Assembly: GCA_050010515.1 (NCBI GenBank)
Contig: JBEKKX010000022.1
Location: 1-64,000 of the forward strand
Source of the DNA: Candidatus Bathyarchaeia archaeon
Lineage (GTDB): Archaea > Thermoproteota > Bathyarchaeia > Bathyarchaeales > Bathycorpusculaceae
DNA length: 64,000 nt
Reading direction: 5' to 3'
Shown: piece after piece, positions 2,104 through 53,472 of the stretch
Numbering within the stretch: position 1 is the first letter of the stretch
Layout: every line of letters begins with the position of its first letter
Notes under the pieces: generated by a model
Told to the model about the DNA's origin: nothing
Seen by the model: the letters and a program-made list of their open reading frames with translations, nothing else
Databases searched by the model: none
Position numbers and translations under genes: made by a program

Positions 2104-2423
2104 CTATCTTTTAAGTTAAATTGGCTGCCGACTCAAGCGGCATAATTAAGCTGCATGAGTCATGAAGCACCATCGGTAAAATTCGATTATATCTATTAAC
2201 CTTTGCGTTTGCTTTTTGATTATCTGTTTTTCTCTCAAATAAGTGGGATTTACTGTTTAAGTAATTAACATTTAGTCAACTATGCAGGGTTCAAAAAGAC
2301 GAAAGGTTAACTTCTTTTTGTTGACGAATTTCTGTAGCAAATAGTATACCTTATAGTGGAGGCATTTTGATGTGGGATTTTGTTTTTTAGCTTCTGTCGG
2401 AAAAGTTGCTAAGGGGATAGCGT

Positions 2424-2437
2424 TTATTAGTCTCGAA
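2424..2437 (+). repeat. left att core TTATTAGTCTCGAA
   Basis: Identical to 20036-20049; about 35 bp from the integrase stop codon. Confidence 0.85.
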
Positions 2438-2471
2438 GGTCGCGTTTTTTGATTAATAAACGCCTTTTCTC

Positions 2472-3620: not shown

Positions 3621-3622
3621 TT

Positions 3623-3913
3623 TTAGGAGCCTCCCTTAATTTTTCGGGTTTCAAGATGGTTTTTGCCTACAATTTTCATATTACAAGAGGCACACCGGAC
3701 AGCGCCATGCGTCCGAAGTCGTTTGTTACAGTCAACACAGAAATGCTTGCCATTGAGGGAGGCACGATTTGAGAAAGTCACTATAACAATCGGCGGCTGT
3801 TTACTCCGAGCATCAACAGACTTTAGCAAGGCCTCAAGGTTGGAGAGTTTCTTTTTCAAGCTGTCAGGTGTGTAGGATTCGAGAATTTCGTTAACGCTTT
3901 CTGTTGCGGTCAA
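3623..3913 (-). CDS. small Zn-finger protein
   Basis: CVDC...CASC; TTG at 3913 overlaps the helicase stop and follows GAGGAGG. Confidence 0.65.
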   Translation of the reverse strand: MTATESVNEILESYTPDSLKKKLSNLEALLKSVDARSKQPPIVIVTFSNRASLNGKHFCVDCNKRLRTHGAVRCASCNMKIVGKNHLETRKIKGGS

Positions 3914-5925
3914 ACTGAATCCTCCTCTGGAGCGCCTATATAGCTGTAACCCGGACATCTTAACGGAATTTCAGATAGCTTGTTTAAATCTCCCCAGTTA
4001 GGCGCCGTGCAACTTGGCTTATCGAAGTTAACACATTCAACAGAACAATAACGCTTAGGAGTTGGCGGTGTTTCTAGTGGTGTTGTTTTCCAGATACGCA
4101 TTTCTCGCCTTGACCCTTTTGGTACTACCTCAAAATTCCAACCACTTGCAATAATCGCGTTTTTAGAGTTGTTAAGTTGATGAGTAAAATAACATGCAGC
4201 AGTAGGCCAACGTTTGCTTTTTACATTCATATTAAGCTGGGTGGCCGTGGAAGTAACCTGATTAAAAACATAGTCAGGAGTGTTAACCCCAGGGTTATCT
4301 TCAGTAGCATTAGTAAGAGCCAAGTTTTCTTTACAATACGCTAGAAAGGCGTCAGCTACTACGTTATTCTCAATGTCTGCCGTGTTTTGACTTTTCAAGT
4401 TCTCTTCCATAGCCTCAATAAAATCCTCTTCTTTTTCACCGAGAGCAACAGCCAAGATACAACCCCATTCTGTAAAATCTGATAGCCGAAAAAGTTTTGA
4501 AGGCTTAACCGTATCTTTAAGATTCAATGCTTTAACAATGACATCAAGAAAACCGCTCAAAATTTCAGGTAAAACTTTGTTAAATTCTGTTTCAAGTTCT
4601 TGATCTGTGCGACGCTCAACGTTTGGCTCAGTTGGATGCATGATTGTCCTATTCAGTAAGTCGCCTTTAGTTACTGACAAATTTAAGCCATTAAGCATGA
4701 TACACCGCTTAAACGAACGAATAAAAGAATCATCATCAGTATACAATGCGCGACTCTCTTGACCCGCTCCAGTTACAGCTTTGCATAACATCTCACTAAA
4801 CCATCGAGGCAAATATTCCAAGTTGTCAAAAATCGGTATGTAATGATGATCTAGCACTTGGAGAGCTGCGTTTTCATCTCTCGGAATCCCAAGCAAAGGC
4901 GCTGAAGAAGGGTCGAATACTGTTCGGATATACCTCTGTGCTGTACTCTTATGTGAGCCGGGGCAGCCATGCATCTCGTTAACTGGATGCGAAATATCAG
5001 GGATAAAGTAAGATGCAGATTGCACCAATAATAAAAGCTGTCTATGAGCGGTCAGCACAGCGTCTTTACATGCACCAATATTAACAAAGGGTAAAAGTTT
5101 TCTTGGATCGCCATGTTGCACTGCCTCAACTAACGGTCTTTGATGATCGTAACGTATAAATAAAATAGGCACATTTACCTCAAGACACCAACCGTTTTTA
5201 GTAATGTGATAAGCCCTATGTCGTGAATCAGCCATGTCTATCCATATTGACCCGTCGCCGCTGGGGTCGAGAGCTACACGGTTAGACATTTTATAATATT
5301 TGCCGTGTGCAGCGGTATACTTCAATAGTTGAATAACTTGAGTCGAGGATTCTCTGTTTAAAATTGTTTTCTCTGCTTCATATAAAAGATGTGATAGATA
5401 TGTTCTAAATTTTTCCTCTTTTAATCTTACTATTTCCTTTGACGCACTTACGCACTTGACGGTATTCCCGCAATCTTTTATGCCTCCTTCTGGATTACAA
5501 TCTCCCTCTTTTACCTCATTAATTTTTTTCAGCGGTGGTGTAGAAGTTTCAGAAACAGCGTCAACTGCGTCAACTGCGTCAAGGTCAAGAGGCACACATG
5601 CAAACTCTATTTTGTGTTGGTCATGGAATAATTCGATATTGCTTTCACAAATTAACTTATAAAGTCTTTCAGCTTGAGAGCCCTTTTTTTCTTTTTCCTC
5701 TTCTGATTCACCGTTTTGTTTTGCTTGTTCTTTTGCAGCTTCTTTTAGTTGTTTTGCTGTTGGTTCTGTTTCTTCTTTGTCTAATATTGGTTGTTTTAAT
5801 GGGTCGTTTCGTGCGTGTGCTTTTTCGCATGTGTAAATTTGTTGTCCGTTTTCGGCTATGTAGCTGGGTACTACTAGGCCTCCGCATGTTCGGCAAACTA
5901 GATTAAATTTTATAGCGTCGGTCAT
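3910..5925 (-). CDS. putative replicative P-loop ATPase/helicase (SF3-like) with N-terminal Zn finger
   Basis: Walker A GCPGSHKST, Walker B IPIFDN, LCKAVTG..RALYTD and DLLNR motifs typical of mobile-element replication ATPases. Confidence 0.75.
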   Translation of the reverse strand: MTDAIKFNLVCRTCGGLVVPSYIAENGQQIYTCEKAHARNDPLKQPILDKEETEPTAKQLKEAAKEQAKQNGESEEEKEKKGSQAERLYKLICESNIELFHDQHKIEFACVPLDLDAVDAVDAVSETSTPPLKKINEVKEGDCNPEGGIKDCGNTVKCVSASKEIVRLKEEKFRTYLSHLLYEAEKTILNRESSTQVIQLLKYTAAHGKYYKMSNRVALDPSGDGSIWIDMADSRHRAYHITKNGWCLEVNVPILFIRYDHQRPLVEAVQHGDPRKLLPFVNIGACKDAVLTAHRQLLLLVQSASYFIPDISHPVNEMHGCPGSHKSTAQRYIRTVFDPSSAPLLGIPRDENAALQVLDHHYIPIFDNLEYLPRWFSEMLCKAVTGAGQESRALYTDDDSFIRSFKRCIMLNGLNLSVTKGDLLNRTIMHPTEPNVERRTDQELETEFNKVLPEILSGFLDVIVKALNLKDTVKPSKLFRLSDFTEWGCILAVALGEKEEDFIEAMEENLKSQNTADIENNVVADAFLAYCKENLALTNATEDNPGVNTPDYVFNQVTSTATQLNMNVKSKRWPTAACYFTHQLNNSKNAIIASGWNFEVVPKGSRREMRIWKTTPLETPPTPKRYCSVECVNFDKPSCTAPNWGDLNKLSEIPLRCPGYSYIGAPEEDSV
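5439..5582. repeat. inverted iteron-like repeats around an A/T tract; candidate origin
   Basis: TTGACGC-like x3 (5439, 5448, 5456) facing GCGTCAA x3 (5558, 5567, 5576). Confidence 0.55.
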
Positions 5926-6077
5926 GGTTGTTCAGCTCCGCAAACGCCCGGGCTTTCATTAATCAGGGTTTTCGCAATTTCCCATTTCAACCGTGAGCAA
6001 ACATACCTGAATGTATCTTTGGTTATGGTTTCTTTAGTGAGATGCTTACAGCTATTACAGCAAAAATCTTTAGTCAA
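5922..6077 (-). CDS. small Cys-rich protein
   Basis: CCNSCKH...CS...C; TTG start overlaps the upstream stop, with GAGGAGG SD. Confidence 0.6.
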   Translation of the reverse strand: MTKDFCCNSCKHLTKETITKDTFRYVCSRLKWEIAKTLINESPGVCGAEQP

Positions 6078-6241
6078 TGAAAAAGCCTCCTCTGAGTTTT
6101 TGCTCTGCAAAAAAAGGTTTTTTTCCGTTGAATCTGAAGGCCATGTTTAGGCGTGTAAATTAATGTTCTTCCATCTTTAAGATTGAAGATAACACTTTCA
6201 ACATCAGCCGGATTCAGTTTTTCAAAAGGTAGCTGAAGCAA
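6074..6241 (-). CDS. 55-aa hypothetical protein (below the ORF-track cutoff)
   Basis: MLQLPFEKLNPADVESVIFNLKDGRTLIYTPKHG...; fills an operon gap and its stop overlaps the next start. Confidence 0.5.
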   Translation of the reverse strand: MLQLPFEKLNPADVESVIFNLKDGRTLIYTPKHGLQIQRKKTFFCRAKTQRRLFH

Positions 6242-6243
6242 AC

Positions 6244-6468
6244 TTAAGCATCCCCTGGCAATCGTCGCTCGCCTATTTTCCGGTTAGTTTTGGCACGCCA
6301 AACTTTGCAGCCTACCCCTCCCCCATGATTGCATGCATAATTTTTAGGGTTGAATTTGTTTTCTCGCTTACATTCAAACTCGAATTTGCAGGGATATTTT
6401 TCTGCTTCTTGAGCTTGGCAGTGTTCTTGAAGTGGTTTAAAATTGGTAGTAAATCGGTTCAATGGCAA
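6244..6468 (-). CDS. small Cys/His protein
   Basis: CKFEFEC...YACNH...C; part of the coupled operon. Confidence 0.55.
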   Translation of the reverse strand: MPLNRFTTNFKPLQEHCQAQEAEKYPCKFEFECKRENKFNPKNYACNHGGGVGCKVWRAKTNRKIGERRLPGDA

Positions 6469-6584
6469 AACCTCAAGGTCATCATCATTTTTTCGGTAAA
6501 ATCAGCGCACTTAGTCGGTTCGTGGTCGCAAGCATATTTTCCGAGTTGGTAGTTGGCACAGTTTCTAAATTCTTTACAGGTCAA
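6459..6584 (-). CDS. 41-aa Cys/His mini-protein (below the ORF-track cutoff)
   Basis: MTCKEFRNCANYQLGKYACDHEPTKCADF...; abuts both neighbouring genes. Confidence 0.5.
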   Translation of the reverse strand: MTCKEFRNCANYQLGKYACDHEPTKCADFTEKMMMTLRFCH

Positions 6585-6770
6585 TTATGGTCTCTCCCTT
6601 TCTCCAATCGGCAAAAACTGCTTACACGCTTTCCATGATGCGTGTGTTGAGTAGCCTAAACGACAATGACTAGTCGTGTACTGTGTGAAGAAAGTGCAAT
6701 TATGGCAAAACTGAGGTTTTGGCGCTTTAGGCTGCAAAAAACTTAAAAGGCTTCGATTGCTATCAATCAA
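6585..6770 (-). CDS. small Cys-rich protein
   Basis: CHNC...C...C; overlaps the upstream stop. Confidence 0.55.
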   Translation of the reverse strand: MIDSNRSLLSFLQPKAPKPQFCHNCTFFTQYTTSHCRLGYSTHASWKACKQFLPIGERERP

Positions 6771-6990
6771 TAACGGTAGTCTCCAGTATCGTGTCAGGTG
6801 CGGGGGATTGCTGGCTAACGTGCTTCTCCTGGCGGGGGGTCACGTTAGTCTTTTTAGTTTTATTGATTCTTGTAGAGTCAAAACGGTGTCCACACCTAGG
6901 ACATTTCACCGGCAGATCGACTCTTGGCTGCCATGTGTTACCACATCGGTCACACATGAGTTTTATAACTTCCTCTTTGATTGTTTGCAT
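6763..6990 (-). CDS. Zn-ribbon protein, first gene of the leftward operon
   Basis: CDRCGNTW...CPRCG pattern common in archaeal viruses and plasmids. Confidence 0.7.
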   Translation of the reverse strand: MQTIKEEVIKLMCDRCGNTWQPRVDLPVKCPRCGHRFDSTRINKTKKTNVTPRQEKHVSQQSPAPDTILETTVID

Positions 6991-7010
6991 GGTTTCTTCT
7001 ATACTGTAGA

Positions 7011-7040
7011 TTAATTTAAATCTTGTTGTATCTGATACAA
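7011..7040 (-). promoter_or_regulatory. TATA-like box with adjacent palindromic operator for the leftward operon
   Basis: TTTAAATT 23-30 nt upstream of ATG 6990; perfect palindrome TTGTATC-T-GATACAA at 7026-7040. Confidence 0.55.
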
Positions 7041-7071
7041 TAATTAGTGAGGTAGGTAGGTAAGAGTAACA

Positions 7072-7227
7072 ATAGTTAACCGCTATTATAGTTAACCGCT
7101 ACAAAATATAGCGCATAACTACTCTTTTTAAACAATTTTAGCGTTTAACTAAACCTAAGCGAGGATATACTAAAACGTAAGAGAGGATATAGTAAAACGT
7201 AAGAAAAGCATCTATTAGCGTCTATTA
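7072..7227. repeat. three paired direct repeats
   Basis: ATAGTTAACCGCTA x2 (7072, 7088); GAGGATATA[C/G]TAAAACGTAAGA x2 (7161, 7183); GC[A/G]TCTATTA x2 (7208, 7218). Confidence 0.8.
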
Positions 7228-7479
7228 CTTTTTATGTGTGGGGGGTTGCTGGCTAGTATATTTTTTCCATGGCTGAAGGTGCGCGCGCACTTTTACAAAA
7301 GAACTTTTTTCTTATGAGGGAATCGGGAGATTATCAGAAAAGCAGAAAGCAAGGCCACGACTTACGACTCAATTTTTATCACCTTCTCCCGTGTTCCCTT
7401 TCCTCCGTTTCCTTTCTGAAAAACTTGTGACATATGAAGGAAAAACCACTTTAAAACAGAAAACCCACATAATTGGTTG

Positions 7480-7565
7480 GGGCAATCCAGAAGGCTTAGT
7501 ACCCGAGTGAAAAAGTCTATTCAGCTGAGCAGACTTTCTGCGACAGTTGTAAGGGGCTTAGTTAC
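7480..7565 (+). repeat. long inverted repeat, left copy (86 bp)
   Basis: Reverse complement of 11752-11834 except for an extra GTC at 7515-7517. Confidence 0.95.
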
Positions 7566-7632
7566 TCTTTCTCATGATGAACATCGGTTATCAAGTTAAT
7601 CGTATGATACAATAGGAGAGAACCCTTTTCTC

Positions 7633-7642
7633 TTTTTCTATT
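7633..7642 (+). promoter_or_regulatory. element motif TTTTTCTATT (first of 8 exact copies)
   Basis: Also at 7911, 8766, 9569, 10877, 11887, 14934 (+) and 14787-14796 (-), each just upstream of a start codon. Confidence 0.7.
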
Positions 7643-7655
7643 GAGGTCTTTAGAC

Positions 7656-7886
7656 TTGGTTAAGAAGAAAAACGATGTAAAGAGCGCGTTTTTAGTTTTG
7701 GTGTCCATGATCTTATTTGTTTTAGGTACAACACTTCTTTATGGTGCGCTGACACTTCATTCGATTAGTCTGATGGGCTATACACTTGCCTTTTCCACTG
7801 TGCCTCTATATCATATGTTGACGTTCGACCTTGGTGCAATCTTTTTCTTTTCTGGATTAATCACTCTAATTTATGCGTTTACTTAG
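7656..7886 (+). CDS. small two-TM membrane protein
   Basis: Two hydrophobic segments; TTG 7656 follows GAGG. Confidence 0.65.
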   Translation: MVKKKNDVKSAFLVLVSMILFVLGTTLLYGALTLHSISLMGYTLAFSTVPLYHMLTFDLGAIFFFSGLITLIYAFT

Positions 7887-7933
7887 CCACCGAAAACACC
7901 GCTAAACCTTTTTTTCTATTAGAGGTTTCACCA

Positions 7934-8419
7934 TTGAGTTATCGTGGTAATCAAAAGGGTAATTATGGCAATCAAAAAAGGGGTCATGTAGGGTTTTTGG
8001 GTAGAAAAAAGAAGCCGAAACAACCGAAAGAAGAGGACGTTGTTTATTTCAGAAACGCGGATCCTCCAGAGCAAAAGATACAACCTGAAACTGTGGCATG
8101 GCAGAACAGACCGTTAGATCAAGGCGTAAGTCTTTTTCTTGTTAGACCAACGACTTTCACGGTTCCAGGTGCAAAAACGGTTTTGCCTTCAGACCTGACA
8201 CTGCAAGAAAAGAACGCTTATGAAATTGCGCTTTTATCCGAAAGTCAAAAACTGGGTCTAGAAGCTGTATCAGGTGACAGCTCAGTAAGAAAATATCGAA
8301 TCCTCAAAACAGTCGACCAACTGCCAACAGATAAACCCTTGAGTTTTAGTGATTATCAGTTTATCGGAAACATCAAAAATAGCTTACGGAGTCACGGCTA
8401 TACAGTTTTGCCTCAATAA
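7934..8419 (+). CDS. hypothetical protein with basic MSYRG N-terminus
   Basis: ORF with SD; N-terminus shared with the 8790 protein. Confidence 0.7.
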   Translation: MSYRGNQKGNYGNQKRGHVGFLGRKKKPKQPKEEDVVYFRNADPPEQKIQPETVAWQNRPLDQGVSLFLVRPTTFTVPGAKTVLPSDLTLQEKNAYEIALLSESQKLGLEAVSGDSSVRKYRILKTVDQLPTDKPLSFSDYQFIGNIKNSLRSHGYTVLPQ

Positions 8420-8500
8420 CTCTAAGTCAAGAGAATTCTCTACACTTTCTGAAGATATACTTCGTATTCTACTCCCATTTAGTTTTCTTTTGATGATTCA

Positions 8501-8761
8501 ATGGGTAGCAAGTCAAAAGGAATAGGCATTTTATTCTTACTCCTTAGCGTCTGTTCGTTCTTAGTCAATTTTCACGTTTGGACGCCTTTTCTAATCGGAA
8601 AAATAACGTTTCTTTGGGATCCACTCAGTTATTTTAGCGCACGAATAGTTGGTAAAATCGTATTATTTGGGTCATCGCTCATTACATATTTGAACTATAT
8701 TTTTTCGTTGTTTTGGTCAGCATTTCTTTTCTTTATTGGTTTGATCTTGATTTCTCATTAA
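8501..8761 (+). CDS. small membrane protein
   Basis: Hydrophobic, 2-3 TM segments. Confidence 0.65.
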   Translation: MGSKSKGIGILFLLLSVCSFLVNFHVWTPFLIGKITFLWDPLSYFSARIVGKIVLFGSSLITYLNYIFSLFWSAFLFFIGLILISH

Positions 8762-8789
8762 ACCATTTTTCTATTGAGTGATTTGAAAC

Positions 8790-9551
8790 TTGTCATATAG
8801 AGGTAAACCTAAAGGCTCTTACGGTCAACAGAGGCATGGAACAAGCACTTTTAAAAGTTTTGGCAAGGGAAAACCAAACGCTGATACGTTGAAAGCGCTC
8901 AGGTCTTTTGAGCACACTTCAGATCAACATTCTGCTAAAGACCTTATGAAGTTCGCGGAGATAACGCCTACCGTCATTGTGTACTTGCAAGCATGGAGAG
9001 GCATAAGCAACAGTGAAATGAAAAGAATCATGGAGAGCAAAGGCGATAAGGCTAAAGCTGAAAAATTGGCTCTGATTGCACGTCGACGGGGTTCTGCCAA
9101 ACTTATGATTCAGGATAACAGCAAAAAAGGCAAGGTTTCCCGACATCATTTCAAGATTGTTAAAAAGAAAGCTACTAAAGAACCTGAGAAGGCTAAAGAA
9201 ATCGTTAAAGAGGCTGAAAAGGAACTTGCAAAAGCAGAGACTAAAATCATAAAAGAAGAGTCTCATTTACCCTCTGAAAAAGAGATTCTTGACCGAGCAC
9301 AGCAACTTTATCAAAAAGAGAACTTTAAAGGCAAATACGAAGATAGCGCGGTTGAACAACTACCAACAAAAGGCGAACTTAGCGAAGAGGGCTATCTGCA
9401 AGCTGCCAAACTTGATTTAATGACGAAAACAGATACAAAGGCGTCAAGAGATGTCATGGATTACGTCGAAGGCATAAAAAACGAGCTAGAAAAAATCGGT
9501 TTCACGGTTGAACCGCTCGCGGGTTTTGACGTCACAGACCTAAAATATTAA
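8790..9551 (+). CDS. Lys-rich hypothetical protein with MSYRG N-terminus and probable coiled coil
   Basis: 253-aa ORF with a K/E-rich helix. Confidence 0.75.
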   Translation: MSYRGKPKGSYGQQRHGTSTFKSFGKGKPNADTLKALRSFEHTSDQHSAKDLMKFAEITPTVIVYLQAWRGISNSEMKRIMESKGDKAKAEKLALIARRRGSAKLMIQDNSKKGKVSRHHFKIVKKKATKEPEKAKEIVKEAEKELAKAETKIIKEESHLPSEKEILDRAQQLYQKENFKGKYEDSAVEQLPTKGELSEEGYLQAAKLDLMTKTDTKASRDVMDYVEGIKNELEKIGFTVEPLAGFDVTDLKY

Positions 9552-9592
9552 TCCCTTTTTTCTTTTGTTTTTTCTATTAAAGGCGTCTAAAA

Positions 9593-10864
9593 ATGAAACT
9601 GAAGAAACTTAGCGTAATAATCGTTCTTTCGGTCTTAGTGTTATCTTGTTTTTGCTTTTCTCAAATTAACTTAACTCACGCTCAATATGTCAATGATGCG
9701 ATAACAAGTACGGTCACTGGGTTATCTACTCCGTATTGTGTAGCTATAACGCCTAACGGTCAATACGCTTATGTCAGTAATGAGTATCATAACACCGTTT
9801 CAGTTATTAGCACATCCTTAAACTCAATAGTTGCAACTGTTACGGGATTTTCAAACGCTGTCGAAGGGTTAGCCGTCACTCCCGACGGAAACTATGTTTA
9901 TGTTTGCAATTTTGACGCTAACAACGTTTTAGTGATAAGCACTAGCTCCAATACGGTAACAGCCACAATAACGGGGTTAGATCAACCTTACAGCATAGCT
10001 ATTTCAGGTCAATACGCTTACGTTGCTAACGACGGGGATAATACGGTTTCAGTGATAAGCACTAGCTCTAACACGATTGTTGCTACAGTGACGGGTTTAG
10101 GAAACACGCCTAACGGTATCGCCATTAACGGAAACTATGCGTATGTGGCAAACGCAGGGAGTAGCACCGTTTCAGTTATCAGCACATCCTCAAACTCGGT
10201 TGTTGCTACCATATCAGGGTTAGATGATCCTCAAGGAATAGCTATTACTCCCAACGGAAACTATGCCGTTGTATCAAATTTTGAGGGTAACGACTTAACC
10301 GTTATCAGTATAGCTTCTAACTCGATTGTTGCTACAGTGTCAGGGTTAGATAATCCCGATTGGGTAGCTGTAACTCCGAATAGTCAATACGCTATCGCTG
10401 TCAATAGCGCTACTCCGAGCACAGCGTCCGTTATAGATTTAACTTCAGATACCCTTGTTGACACCGTATCGGGATTAAATGGGCCTCAAGGAATAGCCAT
10501 TACTCCAAACGGAAACTACGCTTATGTAACAAACTGGGGAGTAAGTTTTGACGGAACTACCGTTTCAGTAATTAGTATCAGCTATGTTTCAGAGCCGAGC
10601 CCTACGCCTTCGAGCCCTACACCTTCACCTAGTCCTGGTGGTGGTTCAGGGAGTTATCCTACACCTTGGCCCAGTTCAGAGCCGACTATTAGCCCTACTC
10701 CCGTCGTTACGCCTATCGTTACCAATGTTAAAAGTTGGTTTACGAATACTTTGTTATTTGAGGTTATAGGTGTTATCGCATTTTTTGGGCTCTTATCTTT
10801 CGTAGCTTTTTCTGTCACGCATAAGCATCCTGCAAGGCGTCGTCATTCAAAACGTCGTCACTAA
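9593..10864 (+). CDS. YVTN/YncE-type beta-propeller surface protein
   Basis: Signal peptide, about 7 repeats of P.GIAITPNG.YAYV.N...TVSVIST, Pro/Ser/Thr linker, C-terminal TM and basic tail. Confidence 0.9.
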   Translation: MKLKKLSVIIVLSVLVLSCFCFSQINLTHAQYVNDAITSTVTGLSTPYCVAITPNGQYAYVSNEYHNTVSVISTSLNSIVATVTGFSNAVEGLAVTPDGNYVYVCNFDANNVLVISTSSNTVTATITGLDQPYSIAISGQYAYVANDGDNTVSVISTSSNTIVATVTGLGNTPNGIAINGNYAYVANAGSSTVSVISTSSNSVVATISGLDDPQGIAITPNGNYAVVSNFEGNDLTVISIASNSIVATVSGLDNPDWVAVTPNSQYAIAVNSATPSTASVIDLTSDTLVDTVSGLNGPQGIAITPNGNYAYVTNWGVSFDGTTVSVISISYVSEPSPTPSSPTPSPSPGGGSGSYPTPWPSSEPTISPTPVVTPIVTNVKSWFTNTLLFEVIGVIAFFGLLSFVAFSVTHKHPARRRHSKRRH

Positions 10865-10901
10865 CCCTTTTTCTTGTTTTTCTATTAGAGATGTAATTAC
10901 A

Positions 10902-11720
10902 TTGAACGTTCAATTAAAATTTAAAAACAAAAAAGCGATTGTGGCTATTGCATTTCTGCTTTGTTTAAGCGCTGCTTTTCTTAACCTCTCGTTAGTTCAC
11001 GCTACCACTGATTCCACACCAACATCAACAAGCTCTTTCAACGATTGGAACGGTGAAGTTTACTTTTGCCCTATTATCGCAACTAGCTCAGGACCGTTGC
11101 AATCTGTTGGCGTCGAGTTAGGCGCTGTATCGGGAAATGTAGAAACCGCTCTATACAGCACGTTTAGCGGTACTCAAATTAGCGGTTTAATCGGTGAATC
11201 TTCTTCGACTGTTGCTACTTCAGGATGGGATGATTTAGCTATACCTAGTGACTATTCGATTGTTCCTGGACAAACCTATTACTTAAGTGTACAAGTGGAC
11301 AATGTTAACACGGTCATATACGAGACTGGTTCTGTAAACATGTATGAAATCTATAACTATGCTTATGGCAGCTTCCCAACTTCTACGCCTTCAGTCACGG
11401 TTACAAGTACATGCCTTTGTATGAGAATGACTTATGGCAGTACCGTTCAAGCTACGCCTACACCGACACCTTATCAAGCTCCAACACCGACGCCTTACGG
11501 CACTCAACCGACACCTTATCAATATCCAACACCGACTCCAACAACTTACAATTATGGGCCTACTCCAACACCTGCAACCGTTTATGTGCTCGGTTACGGT
11601 TTTAGCGACACTGATCTTCTAATTATTGTTGTGGCTATCGCTATTATCTGTGTTTGCGGTGCTTATGTCGGCTGGTCTATCAATCAAGGCAATAAACACA
11701 AAGGCAGAAAACACCATTAA
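10902..11720 (+). CDS. membrane-anchored surface protein
   Basis: Signal peptide, beta-rich domain, PTPTPY linker, C-terminal TM and basic tail. Confidence 0.8.
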   Translation: MNVQLKFKNKKAIVAIAFLLCLSAAFLNLSLVHATTDSTPTSTSSFNDWNGEVYFCPIIATSSGPLQSVGVELGAVSGNVETALYSTFSGTQISGLIGESSSTVATSGWDDLAIPSDYSIVPGQTYYLSVQVDNVNTVIYETGSVNMYEIYNYAYGSFPTSTPSVTVTSTCLCMRMTYGSTVQATPTPTPYQAPTPTPYGTQPTPYQYPTPTPTTYNYGPTPTPATVYVLGYGFSDTDLLIIVVAIAIICVCGAYVGWSINQGNKHKGRKHH

Positions 11721-11751
11721 AGAATAGCCCTTTTTCCCTTTTTTAAAAAAT

Positions 11752-11834
11752 GTAACTAAGCCCCTTACAACTGTCGCAGAAAGTCTGCTCAGCTGAATAT
11801 TTTTCACTCGGGTACTAAGCCTTCTGGATTGCCC
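11752..11834 (-). repeat. long inverted repeat, right copy (83 bp)
   Basis: Reverse complement of 7480-7565. Confidence 0.95.
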
Positions 11835-11910
11835 ACATTGGTGTATCTATTTTCCCGGACGCATGTATTATTTAGGACATTTCCCTTTTTTCTATTGTTA
11901 GGTGTTACGA

Positions 11911-13641
11911 TTGAAACTCAAGAAACTCTTAGTTATCTCTCTAATTACGCTACTCTGTCTCTCAGTTTTAGTTAGTCTTTCAACGATTCCAATGGCTCAC
12001 GCTCAGAGCTATAATATTCAATCTATTCAAGGCCCTATCACTGGAGAGGCTGATAGCGGAACAACCGTAACGTTCACGCTTAACTCTGCACCTATTAGCG
12101 GTGACCTTTTGATTGCATGTATTGGAGGTACGGGTTCTGCAGGTGAAAGTATATCGAGTATCACGGAAACGGGAGTTACATGGACGCCTCAAGAAACTAA
12201 TACTGCTAATACGGGTTTTGTGACAGCTATTTGGGCTGGAGTAGTAGGTTCTGGAGCTGTAAAAGGAGGCACCGTTACTTTTAGTCAAACATTAAACGGT
12301 GGTACTTTCGCGTATGTTGACGAGTATTCAGGGCTTTTGACAACTGGGTTTTTAGACAAAATTAATCTTGCGTCAGGTACAAGTACAACGGCTGCCACTG
12401 GAACAACAGCCACAACAAGCGATGCTAACGAGCTAGCTATTGGTGTCATATTTGGTGGCGAGGTCTTTAGCTCTCAAACTAACGGATTCACGCCTTACGG
12501 CAATACGGTGTATGACTATGACGCTATGGTTTATTTGTCACTGATTGTTAGTCAAACGGGAGCTCAAAGCTGTAGCATGACTCAAGCAAACGGCTATACC
12601 TTTCAAGGTTGTATTGCCACTTTTATCGCTGCTGCTGTAGTTACTACCGCTCAAATTATTTTCACTTCTAACCCGACTGGGAGCGGATTCATAACTGTTA
12701 ACGGAACGGCAGAGACAACGCCTTACACAATCGCCTCTGCTAACATAGGTGACACTTACGACATTTCAGCGAATACTCCAGCAAACACAGTGACGAATGA
12801 AACCCAATATGTTTTTACTCAATGGGCTTCGACTTCGATAGGTACTAAAACAACCGCGAGTTATGCTTATGTTGTGCCTGCAGTTGGAGAGACTGTTACA
12901 GCGTCTTTTACTGAGCAATACGCTATAGCTCCGTCCTCTGATTCTGATTCTTCTCTTACGCCTTCGACTGTGACCTGGGTTAACTCTGGAGGCAATCAGC
13001 TTTTCAGTTACACGGCTAACACTGGGTATGCTATAGCAACCGTTATGATTGACGGTGTACCGTTTTCGATAACTGGGAGTTATCAGTTTTCCGATGTCGT
13101 AACCTATCACACTATTTTAGTCACTTCGATAAGTACAGCAACACCGACAGCGCCGCCTAGTGGATCAACAGGGGGAGGTACTTATCCGAATCCTCCGACT
13201 GGAACTTTAACCGTGAGTAATGTAGCTCTCGGATATTTCAGCGTGAATCAAACAGGGTCAGCTAGTCTAACGCTAACTTTTACTGATAACTCTTGGACGG
13301 TTGAAAGCGTAACTTTCGGAACTCCGTTTAGCACTTGGGTTTCTGCCAATGTGCCGTCGGGTCAATTTACGGCTGGAGTGTTGCATGTACCTATAAGCTA
13401 TGCAGTTCCTTCTTACATGACTACTGGAATATTCACTGGAACGGTCACGGTAGTTGTGCAGGATGCTTGTGGAACAACCTATACGGGTACTTCTAAAATC
13501 ACGATTACCATTTTGCCGACTCCCGTAACTAACATCATGGGCTATATACACGCTCACCTTTTGCTTGTTTGTGTAGCTGCCATTATCTTTGTCTTAGCTA
13601 TTTGTGGCTTAATTGCTACGTTCTCAAGGCGCCGCCATTAA
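11911..13641 (+). CDS. large Ser/Thr-rich adhesin-like surface protein
   Basis: MKLKK signal peptide like the 9593 protein (TTG 11911 preferred over 11902), beta-rich domains, C-terminal TM and RRRH. Confidence 0.8.
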   Translation: MKLKKLLVISLITLLCLSVLVSLSTIPMAHAQSYNIQSIQGPITGEADSGTTVTFTLNSAPISGDLLIACIGGTGSAGESISSITETGVTWTPQETNTANTGFVTAIWAGVVGSGAVKGGTVTFSQTLNGGTFAYVDEYSGLLTTGFLDKINLASGTSTTAATGTTATTSDANELAIGVIFGGEVFSSQTNGFTPYGNTVYDYDAMVYLSLIVSQTGAQSCSMTQANGYTFQGCIATFIAAAVVTTAQIIFTSNPTGSGFITVNGTAETTPYTIASANIGDTYDISANTPANTVTNETQYVFTQWASTSIGTKTTASYAYVVPAVGETVTASFTEQYAIAPSSDSDSSLTPSTVTWVNSGGNQLFSYTANTGYAIATVMIDGVPFSITGSYQFSDVVTYHTILVTSISTATPTAPPSGSTGGGTYPNPPTGTLTVSNVALGYFSVNQTGSASLTLTFTDNSWTVESVTFGTPFSTWVSANVPSGQFTAGVLHVPISYAVPSYMTTGIFTGTVTVVVQDACGTTYTGTSKITITILPTPVTNIMGYIHAHLLLVCVAAIIFVLAICGLIATFSRRRH

Positions 13642-13955
13642 ACCTCTTTTCTTTTAAGTTTCTTTTTCTTATGGAGTGGCCAAAGGGTTTCTTCAGCCTT
13701 AATTTCTTCACGTATTTTGTCAACAACATCTTTCCCTAAAGCATTTTCAACACGCTCAGAAGCTGAAAGTGTAGATTTATCTGAACCCCCATGAGGAACT
13801 TGTTTGAACTCGTCGTGGAGATACCCTATGACGGTGGATCTTTCAAGACCTATAACTTCTACAATTTTCTCAATTATCTCGTTTTTATGTTGATTCTCAA
13901 AGCCAGAATGCACTTTGCAGGCTACTTCCAGTCCATGTATCAATGCTTTGCCCAT
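13638..13955 (-). pseudogene. HTH fragment resembling the ParB-like protein's HTH region
   Basis: KIVEVIGLERSTVIGYL versus EIVAKIGLSHTTVDRYY in 18977-19933. Confidence 0.4.
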
Positions 13956-14125
13956 TTGGGCTAAACATTGGTTGGAATCCCTTTTGACCTTGTCATCGGA
14001 GCTCTCGTTGGTGCGTAACGCATGCGGTACTTTTGAAATAGTTTTAGAAATGCAAAAACAAGTTTGCTTTTCAGTTATGGGAAAGTATCCATGCTTGAGT
14101 GTTTTAGAAGCTGAAAACCTTCAAG

Positions 14126-14773
14126 TTAGATTTCTTTTTCTCTTTCAGCTTTGTCAGAATCAACGGTTTTCCAGTTGGTTGCAGCATAACTGTTTCGTGG
14201 TATAGGTGCGTAAGAACCTGCTTGGTGTCGTTGTTCTTGCATGGACGCATAACTGTTTCTTGGGAGTCCTGCATAACTTACAGTTTTCAGCGTTAGCAAA
14301 TCCTGAAACAACAGGTTTACGTCCCGATTGTTTAATGTGGCCTCAAAACCTTTTGGAACAACCGGCTGTGGCTGCCATTTCTTTCCTCTCTCCAAATCGT
14401 AATCCGCCTTGAAATCATAGAACTCTGGGGTAATAAAAACGGGTGCCTCAATCTTAACGTCATTCTGATTTTTCAAATAAGTTATGCGAGCTCTAAACTG
14501 AGGCTCTCGGTTGTAGTGAACTTTGTATCTCCGATAACTTGTTACGCCTTGAAACCCTCTTCCAGCTAAATGTTTTTCTACTGAAACAACAGCGGTTTCT
14601 TGTTGATAATCCTGCCAGATATGCCTTGCAGCGACAAGCAACACATTATTTTTTAAATCACTCCAATCTACTATTCTATCCTCATAGACCGTGAGGACGA
14701 CAACAATTTTAAATTTGTGAGCCTTCCTTTTTCCAGGTCTTAGAATCTGTGCGTACACCGAGTAGTCTGGCAT
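14126..14773 (-). CDS. hypothetical protein with a C-terminal SYAxxPRNSYA duplication
   Basis: 215-aa ORF with upstream motif and GGAG SD. Confidence 0.7.
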   Translation of the reverse strand: MPDYSVYAQILRPGKRKAHKFKIVVVLTVYEDRIVDWSDLKNNVLLVAARHIWQDYQQETAVVSVEKHLAGRGFQGVTSYRRYKVHYNREPQFRARITYLKNQNDVKIEAPVFITPEFYDFKADYDLERGKKWQPQPVVPKGFEATLNNRDVNLLFQDLLTLKTVSYAGLPRNSYASMQEQRHQAGSYAPIPRNSYAATNWKTVDSDKAEREKEI

Positions 14774-14852
14774 AATTTATTTCTCCAATAGAAAAATAAT
14801 AGAACCTATGTTTGGATGGCTTAAGGGTTTTTAACTCAAAAAGGCATACAAG

Positions 14853-14870
14853 TCCGTTGCCTGCAACGGA
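14853..14870. promoter_or_regulatory. palindromic operator-like site between divergent genes
   Basis: TCCGTTGC-CT-GCAACGGA. Confidence 0.5.
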
Positions 14871-14951
14871 TACCGAACTGCTTCAGAACTAGCCTATCAT
14901 TTTAGAGATTATCCATGCGTTACTAAGCAAACATTTTTCTATTGAACGCTT

Positions 14952-16043
14952 ATGTCAGCAATAGAGAAAGAACTAGGTGAAGAGGTTGCTAAGTTTCTAA
15001 GGGCTATCTCTCCGTCTAACCCTGAAGCACCGGATAAGCTGGGTCCTTCCGCTCAAACATATTATCCTGGGCTAGGTTGGTTTCAGCGTTACCTTGTTGA
15101 ACAATCCCTTTCTAAAGAATCTGCTTTCCCTAGAATCAAGTCAATCCATCTTTTCCTAGTTGCTGTTAAGGCGGATGCAAAAATTGAGAACTCACTCAAG
15201 CGTTGTTTTCCTGATCGAGAGCTGCTTAAGACTTTTGCAACTAGCCTTCTTAAAGAGAACAAGGCGCCTAAAACTGTTAGGTCTTATGTCGGCTCAGTTC
15301 AATCTCTTGCTAAATACTTCGACATTCCAATTACTACAGCCTATAGCGATCTGCCTCCGGCTATTGCAGAGAACGAAAAATATCCCTGGAGTATTGAACA
15401 AGTCGGAGACTTCATTAAGTCTTTTGATTCACCGATGTATAGATGCCTTGGTGTTTGGTTCATTCAAACGGGTCTAAGCAATTACGATCTGTTGCACATG
15501 CCTTATAGCAAAATAAAAGAGCAGTACGAGAATAGCATCAACCCGTTCTGTCTCAATCTTGTGAGGCATAAAACGCGTAAGTTTGAAATCAAGTTTAGGG
15601 CCTTCATCGGTACTCTTGGCATTCGGTACTTTCGCACGTACTATGAGAGTTTGGATCATGCACTCTCGGATGATGATTTGATTTTTAATGTTAGCTCTGT
15701 AGCTGTTGAAAAGTATTTTGAGCGAAGGGCTAAAGAGTTTATATCTAAAGACAAACCGAAAGAGCGCAAGAAGAAAAGCAACTTAACCGTTAACCCCGTT
15801 GCAACCGTAGACGACCCTATTACCGCCACGTTGAAAAAGAAACGGAATCCAATGTGTCCTAGTTCTCTGCGAACTGGGTTTAGAACTTTCTTGAGTGACG
15901 GCAAGGTTACTAACTCAATCATTGAGTACCTCATGGGCCACAACCTAACAAGTGATCTGGAAAAGACATACACCAACAAGTCAGATGATTCATGGAGAAA
16001 GACTTGGCAAGAGTTTGAACCTCTATTAACCTTTCAGGTCTAA
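14952..16043 (+). CDS. second tyrosine recombinase-family protein with atypical active site
   Basis: APKTVRSY, QTGLS, RHKT, SSLRTGF, EYLMGH, KTY. Confidence 0.85.
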   Translation: MSAIEKELGEEVAKFLRAISPSNPEAPDKLGPSAQTYYPGLGWFQRYLVEQSLSKESAFPRIKSIHLFLVAVKADAKIENSLKRCFPDRELLKTFATSLLKENKAPKTVRSYVGSVQSLAKYFDIPITTAYSDLPPAIAENEKYPWSIEQVGDFIKSFDSPMYRCLGVWFIQTGLSNYDLLHMPYSKIKEQYENSINPFCLNLVRHKTRKFEIKFRAFIGTLGIRYFRTYYESLDHALSDDDLIFNVSSVAVEKYFERRAKEFISKDKPKERKKKSNLTVNPVATVDDPITATLKKKRNPMCPSSLRTGFRTFLSDGKVTNSIIEYLMGHNLTSDLEKTYTNKSDDSWRKTWQEFEPLLTFQV

Positions 16044-17032
16044 GCAATCTAGGGGGAGCTGGCTTCAAAAATCAGGGAAGTTGAGTAATTTTGTTAAAAA
16101 GTGTACAGCAGGCGGTACACTTTCTGACCGTATTGCATACTCACTTCTTAAATTTGACCATGAAACTCAAGATAAACTTGCTAAAGCTATCATAAATTAG
16201 CGGTAAGTCCAGTTGAGTTCAGTGCGGTAAAGAGTTTCTTGGTTTGGATTTGTGAGGCTTGTATCTCTCACCTGCCTACCATGTCGAACTTGGCGGATTT
16301 TATACTGTACTTGGTTCTGGAAAAATAACTTTTGTCTTTTCTCTATGGAAACGTGCACGTATATAACGTTTTTTCAGTTCAAAAAAATTTTTGTGAGTGA
16401 AACATACATCAAACGCTCTGTTTGTTTAGCTATAACTAAGCTAACACGTTTTACCATAGATAGAAAGAGCATACCCCCCAAACAAAATAGATTCGCACCC
16501 GCGATTTGCTTTTTCCTAGCGCTAGGTTAACAGTATTAGTGTTTCTCAGGGGCATCGCATAAAAAAATGTAACGCTGCCATATATAAGCCCGTCCATGCT
16601 TGAGGTACACGATTCAGGGATTTCAGCGTTATTTTTTGCTGTCAAAAACATAATCTCTATGGGAAACCAACATAGCAATAATGTAAACATAACATAAACC
16701 CTTACTTTTGGGGTTTTGTAATGCATAAATCCAGCTTTTCCATGAAAAGAATCTATTCAGTGGTAATTTAACCTATGGTGAAATAGCTAAATGTTGCGGT
16801 TATGTGTAAAATTGTGAGAAAAACGTAATCTTTGCCCTGAAAAAGTACGGAATCCGAGCCTAAATTAACCTTCTTTTGGGTTACTGTTTTCATTGTAACG
16901 CATAATTAGCCCAAAGAAAGATTGCTTTTTCAGTGGTTTTTACCCACTTACAGCGCCGAAATATCCTAGTCCATTTTGGACAGACCTATCCTGATTCTGT
17001 GAATAGTTATTTTTCTTATAGAAGGTAAGTAT

Positions 17033-17668
17033 ATGACAAATGAAATTGCAAAGTTTCCGTCTTGTGTCCGTGAGTTTATGGCTGAATTAAGCGGTTACAT
17101 TAAAGCAGACACAACAGTTGACAAATACTTGAAAACAAGCGATCCAGTAAGCATCAAGGATGGAATAGTGCGGATTAACATAAAGCATGAAGTTGCGGAA
17201 AGTGCTGCTAACTATAATCAATTTATCAAGGATTTTAAGGCTGCAAAACAGAAATATCATGCCTTGTCAAGCTACACGGACACCGTTGTACATGTTAAAC
17301 CTGTGCCAATTGAAGAGACAACAGTAAAATTCATGCCTAATTATTATATGCAAGGCGTCCACATTGAAATTTTGCTGAAAGACCTGGTGCTGGATAAGCT
17401 AGGCTATTTTTTTAACCCTGATTCCGAGTTATCTATACCGGATAGCATACAGATACTCCGAAATTGTGGGATGTCCGATATGGTCATCATGCGTAGCTTG
17501 GGTAGTCCAAGAACTACGTTTAATCGTTACTGTAAAATCTTAGATTCTAAAGGGGCCATGGGAGAAACCAAAATGGACACTAAAGAAACCAAAGAGGACA
17601 CGGCAAAAACCATTTTGGACACGTCTCAAACTGAGCAAAAAACCGAGTTAACCACTGTACCAAACTGA
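17033..17668 (+). CDS. hypothetical protein with probable HTH
   Basis: GMSDMVIMRSLGSPRTTFNRY helix-turn-helix-like segment. Confidence 0.65.
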   Translation: MTNEIAKFPSCVREFMAELSGYIKADTTVDKYLKTSDPVSIKDGIVRINIKHEVAESAANYNQFIKDFKAAKQKYHALSSYTDTVVHVKPVPIEETTVKFMPNYYMQGVHIEILLKDLVLDKLGYFFNPDSELSIPDSIQILRNCGMSDMVIMRSLGSPRTTFNRYCKILDSKGAMGETKMDTKETKEDTAKTILDTSQTEQKTELTTVPN

Positions 17669-17902
17669 AAGGAAGAGTGACCAAAACGGACAACCCTGTT
17701 TTACCTTGCCAAACACCAAAATTCAACGGCTGCAAAGGTTGTCAAGCTGTCAACTGTTGCACACGACGCTGTAGCCACTAAAAATTAGTTCTTTTTCTAA
17801 TAGGGATAAAACCCTGAGAGGCTGGGGATCGCTTTAAATCCGCTCAGCCGATAACTCACGGATTGATGAAAAAGCGGTTCCCAGTGTTTTTTTTTTGCAA
17901 GT

Positions 17903-18976
17903 TCACTGTTTAAGCACCTTAGCCTCATAGTCGTCAAGAAACTCGGAGCTTAAGTTTGGGGTACTGTGTTTTTTCTTGAAATCAGCATACTCGGCAATCA
18001 AATTAGCTATTGCATAGTCAATGTGCAAATGAGGCTTTGCTTTTATGATCTCGGTTTTTTTTCCGAAATCCAATAGACAACGTAAAAACACTGTGTCAAC
18101 AAGCCGGTTTATTCTAGGTCTTGAATTGCCAAAATATTTTAAGGTGGCTCTAGCTTGCCTAACCTTACGCGCTAACGTGTCTCTAAACTTCAGGTCCGAG
18201 ATTCCGTATTTATCGCAAATAAAAGAAGAGTAGCTTAAGACGCCTTTGTTGTCGTTAGCGAAGCTATCAACAACCCTCCCCAATTTAGATTTTCTCAGAG
18301 GCAGGTCTTGCTGGTTGAACAAGTTATCAATGTCAGCAACAGGTAGCCTCCGCACGTAGCCCTGGCTTAAACGGTAAAAGTAGGCGTCATTGTTGGCAAA
18401 GCGGCTTTTGGTAAATTTGCTTGCTTCTTGTGGATTTGTCTTTTGAAACTCGGATAAATCAACGTCATTATTAACAAGTAGCTTGTGAATTTCGGTGCCC
18501 TTTAACGTGCAGCCTAAACCGTCAGTAAAACTTAACATGCTTGAGGGTTGAAAGGTAACGTCGCGGTCTAAACTATCATCGAAGGGTATGCTTTCGTCAT
18601 AGGAGGCGCCGACGCCGACCACTAAGCCGCAAGCCAGGCAAACTTTTTCTCCGTCGTCAACCTTATCCGTGAGAGTTTCACACAAACACTCAGGGCAAAC
18701 AAGGTCCAACTGATCGACCCTAACGACGCCTCCCATATTCGACGCTAACCATGCGTCAAGAATCCCTTGATATTTAGCTAACTCATTTTTGCTGTCAAGG
18801 CCTAGTACTTTTCTTAAATTCTCAGGATCAGTAATGTTTTCTCGATACTTAAGCTGGAAAAGCTGTTGATGCAGTTTCATGTCCGGGAGAAGTGCCAGAT
18901 ATTTCTCTTCTGAAAGACCGCTATTCCTAACGTAAGCCAATATTTGTTCAGTGTTTCCGTTTAGTTCAACCAACAT
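17903..18976 (-). CDS. divergent TFB/TFIIB-like protein
   Basis: C-x2-C-x15-C-x2-C ribbon with GEKVC..CGLV matching the host TFB spacing, then PSSMLSFTDGLGCTL resembling host PTSYSVHDKGLSTAI. Confidence 0.65.
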   Translation of the reverse strand: MLVELNGNTEQILAYVRNSGLSEEKYLALLPDMKLHQQLFQLKYRENITDPENLRKVLGLDSKNELAKYQGILDAWLASNMGGVVRVDQLDLVCPECLCETLTDKVDDGEKVCLACGLVVGVGASYDESIPFDDSLDRDVTFQPSSMLSFTDGLGCTLKGTEIHKLLVNNDVDLSEFQKTNPQEASKFTKSRFANNDAYFYRLSQGYVRRLPVADIDNLFNQQDLPLRKSKLGRVVDSFANDNKGVLSYSSFICDKYGISDLKFRDTLARKVRQARATLKYFGNSRPRINRLVDTVFLRCLLDFGKKTEIIKAKPHLHIDYAIANLIAEYADFKKKHSTPNLSSEFLDDYEAKVLKQ

Positions 18977-19933: not shown

Positions 19934-20035
19934 TTTTAAAACCTCTACAACTGTTCTTATTTAGATAAAATTGAGAACCAAAAAAGGAAAAAAGGGAAGG
20001 TTGTGTTTTGTGCGGGTGATATCTCCAATAAAGAC

Positions 20036-20049
20036 TTATTAGTCTCGAA
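20036..20049 (+). repeat. right att core TTATTAGTCTCGAA
   Basis: Identical to 2424-2437. Confidence 0.85.
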
Positions 20050-51008: not shown

Positions 51009-51086
51009 TATAACCTTGTAGTAGTCTGTTGACAACCACATAGCTTTAAGAATTCTTGAAATTAAATATAAATTACTCTCAAAACT

Positions 51087-51377: not shown

Positions 51378-51599
51378 ACGTGCGACGTGCATCCAGATAA
51401 GATTCCCTTTACTCCTCTCTCTCTTCCATAAATTTTTTTGGATGCACGCCACTCCCAGTTATCATTAATTTGTGAGTGATGGTTCCTAAATTAACTATAG
51501 ACCGGGTCATTTCAGCTAGCGAAAAAAGCACGATACTTAAAGTTACCGACCAAGACGCACCATGCTATTTTAGGTCGATTCCAAAACTTAAATAATGTT

Positions 51600-51950: not shown

Positions 51951-52031
51951 AGACCTTCAAGCAACCTGACGATCCAGTTGACGTTAATCTTGCCTTATTG
52001 GGTCCTAATATAAGATGTAAACGATAAGCGC

Positions 52032-53460: not shown

Positions 53461-53472
53461 ACTCCCGCGTGC

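Follow-up and report, generated by a model that had tools for sequence, protein, structure and literature searches.

The 64,000-nt stretch of archaeal DNA analysed here (the window; positions 1 to 64,000 of contig JBEKKX010000022.1, assembly GCA_050010515.1) carries an integrated element in which a ten-base word, TTTTTCTATT, stands just ahead of the start codon of eight genes. As judged from its distribution in sequence, this word is a genuine and conserved gene-punctuation signal, and it belongs to the right-arm module of structural and accessory genes in a family of integrated elements. In form it is a tract of pyrimidines with T5CTNTT at its end, placed directly against the Shine-Dalgarno (SD) sequence. 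We tentatively read the decamer T5-C-T-N-TT as a transcript-level signal at gene junctions, in which a leaky oligo-pyrimidine terminator or pause site would be fused to the ribosome-binding leader of each cistron.

All eight exact copies in the window fall within positions 7633-14943, and each precedes the start of an open reading frame (ORF) by 8-15 nt (Table 1). In 100 shuffled windows the word occurred 0.64 times on average and four times at most, and none of the shuffles reached eight; the cluster is thus beyond chance and the observation is confirmed. A sequence-only reading of this DNA had listed the eight copies with their strands and spacings and a variant at 17010, and we reproduced all of these. 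The ten bases are invariant over the eight copies, and their flanking sequences are unrelated to one another. The base right after the word is a purine in every copy (5 G, 3 A), and an SD-like core of at least 4 nt follows in five copies and one of 3 nt in two more, in agreement with the earlier description. Since words with one mismatch are barely enriched in the window (25 against ~16 expected), the copies are all-or-none. Four of them (7911, 8766, 9569 and 10877) sit 4-24 nt past a co-directional stop codon, and the copy at 11887 lies 166 nt past the stop at 11720.

Across the whole assembly (2,379,893 nt in 66 contigs, GC 0.426), TTTTTCTATT occurs 54 times: 8 copies in 7.3 kb of the element versus 46 across the remaining 2.37 Mb. 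By rough gene calls, 19 of these 46 are coding antisense, 9 coding sense and 18 intergenic. An ORF of at least 60 amino acids (aa) begins 8-16 nt downstream of 10 of the 54 copies, namely the eight in the element, one on contig C58 (C58:6417) and one on contig C20 (C20:12846); the association of the last is probably due to chance. The background was estimated at ~5% from one-mismatch variants genome-wide (39 of 868 start-associated), and 356 of 7128 two-mismatch variants were also start-associated, a class that was partly pre-filtered and is therefore incomplete. The description of the motif as element-specific in the sequence-only reading holds in that the copies are clustered and absent from host gene starts, but C58 and related elements carry the motif as well, so the specificity is to an element family.

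The host signals provide a point of comparison. In 359 host ORFs with unambiguous starts, a G-rich SD lies at -14 to -8 with an A-rich, not T-rich, stretch ahead of it, and 83 of these ORFs begin with TTG; the 16S rRNA 3' end in the genus, which holds the anti-SD, reads ...GGAUCACCUCCU. A host promoter consensus, with a B recognition element (BRE) and TATA box of the type AAA-CTTAAAT or TTTAAAT, was taken from the upstream regions of tRNA genes. The commonest 7-mers in the 3' flanks of convergent host genes are T-rich (among them T7, CT6, TTTCTTT and TTTTTCT). Co-directional host spacers contain T5 in 2 of 123 cases at 10-30 nt, in 8 of 81 at 20-50 nt and in 187 of 340 at 120-300 nt. As T5 is rare in short and common in long spacers, T-tracts behave as transcription-unit borders here; in the right-arm cluster, all four short junctions (28-47 nt) carry the motif and hence T5.

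To follow the word beyond this genome, we used the 253-aa protein encoded behind copy 3, which has 19 homologues at 39-62% identity, all in metagenomes or Bathyarchaeia metagenome-assembled genomes. Homologue DNA was drawn from metagenome contigs and genomes of the same family and pooled as 12 loci taken as independent (124,961 nt: the window element, C58, L163-L167, L190-L192, L194 and L195); L162, L168 and L169 were left out as they repeat L190, the pooled loci are nevertheless kin, and their gene calls are rough. The pool holds 92 copies of T5-C-T-N-TT, of which 43 have an ORF of at least 45 aa starting 8-16 nt downstream and 47 are start-associated when the window is set at 5-22 nt. With the latter setting, start association varies with the eighth base (28 of 39 copies with A, 13 of 35 with T, 4 of 9 with G and 2 of 9 with C), and the exact word TTTTTCTATT is start-associated in 28 of its 39 occurrences. 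Control decamers of matching composition in which the C was moved, the tract was T7, or C6 was changed to A or G occur 7-36 times each and are start-associated in 0-23%. A purine follows the motif in 43 of the 47 start-associated copies, the SD begins 0-3 nt past it, and the motif itself is all pyrimidine except at position 8. The distance from motif to start is tight, and the upstream stop codon lies 2-117 nt away or there is no upstream gene.

Many of the starts behind the motif are TTG: five of eight in the window, eight of eight in L191 (which has 15 motif copies in 9 kb, eight of them 10-15 nt before TTG starts) and 21 of 47 in the pool, with the starts approximate and the loci related. 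Two TTG starts are confirmed because M-S-Y homology reaches right up to the TTG. This homology defines a basic, Gly/Tyr-rich family (M-S/G-Y-x-G-R..G-x-Y-G; 7934-8419 and 8790-9551 in the window) with a conserved C-terminal domain and no Pfam name; there are usually two paralogues per element, and the N-termini of the 161-aa and 253-aa proteins are alike. An AlphaFold2 model of the 253-aa protein was too poor to read (predicted local distance difference test score 59.5). Upstream of 14 genes of this 'MSY' family the motif is the sole conserved block, exact in ten, variant in three and absent in one; the set left out L193, a pseudogene with T5CTGTC 27 nt upstream, and L195-L197, whose starts could not be fixed. 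The motif is retained at 39-48% protein identity. Across 40 non-redundant start-associated sites the information content is ~0 at -35 to -15 from the motif, so no TATA box stands at a fixed distance upstream, in line with the earlier remark that most copies lack an obvious one. The same sites show pyrimidines at -3 and -2, depletion of G from -8 to -1, and purines from +1 to +5. The motif thus stands at about 40 gene starts, spread over at least 12 diverged elements, and is a clean and testable cis-element.

The motif does not travel with the left-arm module of the element. Loci were also collected through the 671-aa protein of the left arm, which matched 8 of 201 family genomes, and the loci L013-L024 (~156 kb) contain a single exact copy that does not precede an ORF. 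The 576-aa surface protein has homologues in the genus, none of them with the motif upstream. In the same genome as the window, contig C58 carries two motif copies beside a similar surface-protein gene. This gene has the motif 10 nt before its ATG (locus L025), and the second copy is followed by an SD and an ATG that runs into a stop after four codons and looks like a truncated gene start, next to tRNA genes. C58 shares a contig-end sequence with contig C51 (L024), which codes for a protein related to the N-terminal part of the 671-aa protein, and together they are a second related element or remnant. A scan of the genus for the motif followed by 0-3 nt and AGGT gave 76 matches in 50 of 120 genomes versus 40 for the reversed control; as this excess is only 1.9-fold, single matches are no evidence of an element. 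Three such matches fall within 5.2 kb on contig C38 of genome G257 (50874-56072), probably a further member of the family. Protein scans of viral contigs found no relatives, and of the stretches with two motif copies in viral contigs (at least 113) those with 4-8 copies were rejected as tandem repeats or coding antisense that arose by chance.

Under the favoured gene-junction reading, transcription would begin at a few ordinary BRE/TATA promoters, with candidates near 7450 and in the 178-nt divergent region that holds copies 7 and 8. Ahead of every cistron, RNA polymerase would meet a leaky stop, with the T5CT core acting, in the manner of TTTTTYT, as an archaeal oligo-T or oligo-pyrimidine signal for termination or pausing, and the result would be nested transcripts and graded or conditional expression. 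Read-through would expose a U-rich, unstructured leader and the SD for ribosome loading. A 30S subunit bound at the SD might even shield the adjoining U-tract from aCPSF1 and so couple read-through to translation. Formation of 3' ends at the motif, the leakiness of termination, the help of the leader in translation and the coupling are all predicted steps.

The terminator side of this reading draws on the likeness of the core to known signals. On the non-template strand, each of the eight copies shows a run of at least five T and then a pyrimidine and a T, and the actual sequence is T5CT. The terminator consensus of the Sulfolobus spindle-shaped virus SSV1 is TTTTTYT in the cited part of its description (PMC9608457), and the motif core TTTTTCT matches it. 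Excerpts of other work report that Pyrococcus RNA polymerase terminates at 5-6 T (PMC2253867), that penta-U, oligo-U and oligo-pyrimidine tracts are classical archaeal terminators (PMC2151090) and that intergenic terminators tune an archaeal operon (PMC10665913). Given this likeness, polymerase crossing the word should pause or stop. The sequence-only reading had set a terminator aside, which was too fast in view of the SSV1 match and of unit ends that carry T5CT with no start behind it, at 13663 and 17792 in the window and at L191:16744 and L192:641. The presence of host-type promoters upstream of the units indicates that the motif is probably transcribed, and a hairpin ends immediately ahead of the T-run of a second motif copy in each of L190, L191 and L192.

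These hairpins are imperfect and lie between a first copy (TTTTTCTTTT, after the stop codon) and the second copy before the next SD (L190 7606-7682; L191 11611-11712; L192 2844-2910, 5380-5490 and 9471-9555). The stem sequence differs among elements and the common shape is a stem-loop followed by a U-tract, with z-scores of -0.4 to -3.1; a search of L190-L192 against Rfam gave no match. Local RNA folds around the motif had z-scores in the same range (-0.4 to -3.1), and no common structure was found among them.

A close parallel for such a signal, along with archaeal oligo-T terminators at large, is that of SSV1, likewise a temperate, integrase-bearing element of a TACK-group archaeon with T5 followed by a pyrimidine and T on the coding strand. 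Its nested transcripts arise by read-through of terminators, according to the cited part of the SSV1 work (PMC9608457). The word in the present family differs in being longer (T5CTNTT) and nearly invariant, in abutting the next SD and in standing before first genes as well, and its T7 or shifted-C versions are not used. In the arl operon of Pyrococcus furiosus, T-rich intercistronic terminators also tune the relative levels of products, as stated in the cited excerpt (PMC10665913). There, generic T-stretches occur at a few junctions, whereas here one conserved word marks nearly every junction. Further analogues are the non-segmented negative-strand RNA viruses, in which a U-run stop is coupled to a conserved restart word at gene borders, and the early terminator of poxviruses, T5NT, which is specific to the virus and recognised in the nascent transcript. 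The polymerases and factors of those systems are encoded by the viruses themselves, and the element described here encodes no recognisable polymerase.

Several observations weigh against the gene-junction reading. Of the 46 host copies of TTTTTCTATT, 28 are coding and only ~4 lie within 90 nt past a gene end by rough gene calls. The copies at 7633, 14787 (minus strand) and 14934 have no co-directional gene upstream and would have to be leader attenuators, and the divergent copies in L194 are only 41 nt apart, so that there is hardly space for a promoter upstream of each. At three first genes in L191 an A-rich, TATA-like box, adjoining a 16-nt palindrome, lies 3-4 nt before the motif, which would place the motif inside the promoter and not in the RNA; the role of the motif at first genes may differ from that at internal junctions. 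Decamers with a moved C or T7 are 3-9 times rarer than the motif as well as not start-linked, indicating sequence-specific recognition and arguing against a plain terminator. As the host sequence before the SD is A-rich and not T-rich, a general benefit of the leader for host ribosomes is doubtful. A terminator alone leaves the sequence specificity, the close approach to the SD, the first-gene copies and the lack of use by the host unexplained.

An operator or enhancer acting purely at the RNA level is an alternative that we consider possible but appreciably less probable than the gene-junction reading. Here, U5CUNUU beside the SD would be bound by a specific RNA-binding factor of the element or the host, such as an Sm-like protein or one of the basic 'MSYRG' proteins, which would switch the translation or stability of all right-arm cistrons and make termination irrelevant. 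A fixed word that keeps within 0-3 nt of the SD and precedes the start by 8-16 nt, its presence before first and internal cistrons alike, its absence from host starts, and the frequency of TTG behind it (21 of 47 sites versus 83 of 359 host ORFs) are all consistent with such a role. The processing or translation signal that the sequence-only reading had offered as its second option fits the data well. Pope et al. reasoned along the same lines about the start-associated sequences (SAS) that cluster K mycobacteriophages carry, in the cited part of their paper (PMC3203893). According to that description, the SAS are short and asymmetric, share one orientation and precede the starts of many unrelated genes in one genome arm by a few nt; they are conserved across subclusters and absent from the host (PMC3203893). 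The motif has this asymmetry, single orientation, placement before unrelated genes in one arm, conservation and absence from the host, but it lies just 5' of the SD, whereas the SAS occupies the ribosome-binding site and contains the SD core. The SAS also prefers ATG where TTG is common here, its host is bacterial rather than archaeal, and the two show no sequence likeness, so the comparison is an analogy only. Against an RNA operator, no factor was identified, and a T5 tract in the transcript is expected to act on archaeal RNA polymerase regardless. Complementarity of at least 6 nt to 16S rRNA was absent from three of four relatives and amounted to one 6-mer in the fourth; pairing of the motif with 16S rRNA was thus rejected as unsupported.

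A broader proposal, to which we give about the same credence as to an RNA operator, is that the motif is a dedicated gene-start signal of an archaeal virus family, read by a factor of the element through TATA-less initiation that is independent of the TATA-binding protein, polymerase stop-restart or an RNA switch that licenses late cistrons. If this is true, no code of gene punctuation specific to a virus would have been described in Archaea before, and the motif would offer a way into gene expression in the uncultured Bathyarchaeia.

The motif could also act as DNA. A repressor of the element would bind the asymmetric word and block elongating polymerase, as at the stoperators of cluster A mycobacteriophages, and so silence the integrated right arm; we regard this as unlikely. 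Only a minority of the population carries the integrated element, and the word is a multicopy site conserved in a temperate-element family and absent from the host. In the cited parts of two papers, stoperators are likewise many asymmetric sites in short intergenic spacers, oriented with transcription, in temperate elements (PMC9283540, PMC3203893). Unlike the motif, they are 13-14 bp long, have a known repressor and keep no fixed distance from starts. A roadblock on DNA need not hug the SD within 0-3 nt when spacers reach 117 nt, ten bases of which one is free are short for a specific monomer site, and beside the module in the window we found no candidate repressor that has a recognised DNA-binding domain.

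The sequence-only reading had preferred a TATA-less, initiator-type late promoter, with each gene its own unit and the transcription start site (TSS) at the purine after the motif. This we consider somewhat less probable still than a DNA roadblock. In 43 of 47 sites a pyrimidine at -1 meets a purine at +1, as suits an archaeal initiator, and the motif would fill -10 to -1, where Sulfolobus promoters have an AT-rich proximal element, with its T5 ending the previous unit. The title of Reiter et al. (1988) speaks of a comparable 'linkage to transcription initiation'. Nothing in our data shows a promoter at the motif, however: the 40 sites carry no information at the TATA/BRE position, host-type BRE/TATA sequences lie upstream of the units at 7450 and 7019 (minus strand), and the element encodes no recognisable polymerase, TATA-binding protein (TBP) or transcription factor B (TFB). 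To our knowledge, all archaeal initiation requires TBP and TFB, and we know of no precedent for a TATA-less promoter in archaea. The idea that leaderless mRNAs use the motif itself as their TATA box was rejected, since it would put the TSS 7-10 nt into the ORFs and an in-frame start 20-30 nt downstream is present in only one of eight genes. A scan for sigma-70 promoters and hairpin terminators is uninformative for an archaeon.

Recombination at the motif is very improbable. It would make the word a site or cassette boundary for the second tyrosine recombinase (14952-16043), which would invert a 137-nt segment or shuffle cassettes; two inverted copies do flank 137 nt right beside the recombinase gene, and the genes behind the motif are mutually unrelated, like cassettes. 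The word has no inverted partner or core-type symmetry, however, the spacers are too short for attC-like sites, and orthologous genes keep the motif in conserved order. Paired inverted elements of the attC, sfx or fim type and rearranged forms were not found. Contigs of run X4 are colinear over 7536-11781 and 13724-16741 at a depth of 55-59 with no break at any copy, and those of four runs are colinear through all copies, although contigs can miss rare forms. That the word has no function at all and arose by chance, composition or copying with duplicated genes, as the paralogous 161-aa and 253-aa genes with their similar N-termini might suggest, is practically negligible given the shuffling result, start association of eight of eight copies against ~5% background, unrelated flanks and retention of the word between diverged proteins.

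The kinds of signal invoked here, oligo-T terminators, nested viral transcripts and start-associated words, are known. Our literature search found no conserved decamer marking nearly every gene border of an archaeal-element module, and no cis-signal for Bathyarchaeia elements. In the paper on Bathyarchaeia viruses (PMC10541130) the word 'promoter' has no occurrences. Very little is known of how transcription and translation start and stop in Bathyarchaeia and their mobile elements. Should its function go beyond termination, the motif would be the first signal of element-specific gene punctuation in Archaea. In either case it is a practical marker for finding and annotating the element family and for fixing true starts, many of them TTG.

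Table 1. Motif copies and other features of the integrated element. Positions refer to the window; +, forward strand; -, reverse strand.
Feature	Position	Strand	Remarks
Motif copy 1	7633-7642	+	13 nt before TTG 7656; 76-aa membrane protein
Motif copy 2	7911-7920	+	13 nt before TTG 7934; 161-aa basic 'MSYRG' protein
Motif copy 3	8766-8775	+	14 nt before TTG 8790; 253-aa 'MSYRG' family protein
Motif copy 4	9569-9578	+	14 nt before ATG 9593; 423-aa beta-propeller surface protein with signal peptide
Motif copy 5	10877-10886	+	15 nt before TTG 10902; 272-aa surface protein
Motif copy 6	11887-11896	+	14 nt before TTG 11911; 576-aa surface protein
Motif copy 7	14787-14796	-	13 nt before ATG 14773; 215-aa protein; divergent intergenic region
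Motif copy 8	14934-14943	+	8 nt before ATG 14952; 363-aa second tyrosine recombinase; without SD
Variant TTTTTCTTAT	17010-17019	+	13 nt before ATG 17033
TTTTTCTTAT, T5CT core at unit end	13663-13672	+	22 nt past stop of last + gene; no start behind
TTTTTCTAAT	17792-17801	+	124 nt past stop of gene 17033-17668; no start behind
Left 14-nt direct repeat (att core)	2424-2437	.	Same 14 nt aligned at both element ends
Right 14-nt direct repeat	20036-20049	.	Aligned to left copy
Tyrosine integrase	2472-3620	-	PF00589, E 7.7e-18; left arm, no motif
Host-type TATA box	7012-7020	-	~26 nt before ATG 6990
Host-type TATA candidate of right-arm operon	7450-7455	+	Predicted TSS near 7480
Inverted repeat, left arm	7480-7570	.	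~90 nt, 96-100% complementary, 3-nt bulge
Inverted repeat, right arm	11747-11834	.	Partner of 7480-7570

The host is a member of Bathyarchaeia, genus Ca. Bathycorpusculum. The window carries archaeal housekeeping genes (an MptE-like kinase, a GHMP kinase and class I aminoacyl-tRNA synthetases), its DNA occurs in peat and wetland metagenomes, and an Rfam search of the window returned two tRNAs only. The eight motif copies of the window lie inside a 17.6-kb integrated element, at about 2424-20049, which has an integrase, 14-nt direct repeats at its flanks and an empty site. Run X8 yields a contig in which 2416 is joined to 20036; its depth is 64 and that of the element ~6, so the element is mobile and present in only part of the population. 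Run X11 has a depth pattern like that of X8. Members of this element family are probably proviruses of Bathyarchaeia.

The left arm (2272-6990, minus strand) encodes the tyrosine integrase, small Zn-ribbon proteins and the 671-aa protein, which has no assigned family. Neighbouring genes overlap or abut in this arm, which is devoid of the motif; the gene starting at ATG 6990 is presumably its leaderless first gene. The right arm encodes a small membrane protein, the two basic M-S-Y-R-G paralogues (161 and 253 aa), the 215-aa ORFan, for which nearly no relatives were found, and the second tyrosine recombinase, which matches PHROG_1 and whose homologues carry PF00589. It also encodes three surface proteins, including a beta-propeller, that each combine a signal peptide and a C-terminal anchor with a Pro/Thr-rich linker, and a ParB-like gene lies near the right end of the element. 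Searches of Pfam, PHROGs and PDB sequences left most right-arm proteins without a name.

The 630-nt non-coding region between the arms holds tandem direct repeats of 13 nt (two copies) and 22 nt (two to three copies) at 7069-7100 and 7151-7194. These are iteron-like and may mark an origin or control region. An inverted repeat of ~90 nt encloses the first 4.2 kb of the right-arm cluster, and its left arm begins at the TSS predicted from the TATA box at 7450. It could delimit an invertible segment or form a 5'-3' RNA panhandle. Contigs break at the arms of this repeat, as they would at any repeat longer than the k-mer. In L190 an unrelated 37-nt inverted repeat (8700-8736 and 10914-10950) surrounds the matching genes, and no inverted repeat of at least 28 nt was found around them in L191, L192, L194 or L195.

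Palindromes with CCGTT/AACGG or GTTCCCA..TGGGAAC half-sites occur in the window at 14854-14869, 19256-19275 and 19310-19329, and the same type is found in L191 at about 11713-11728 and about 18140-18160. One of them sits midway between motif copies 7 and 8, in the divergent region, and in L191 the palindrome stands 20-25 nt before the motif at first genes. In L191, a gene resembling those of ribbon-helix-helix proteins adjoins one of the palindromes, which are probably operators of a regulator of the element.

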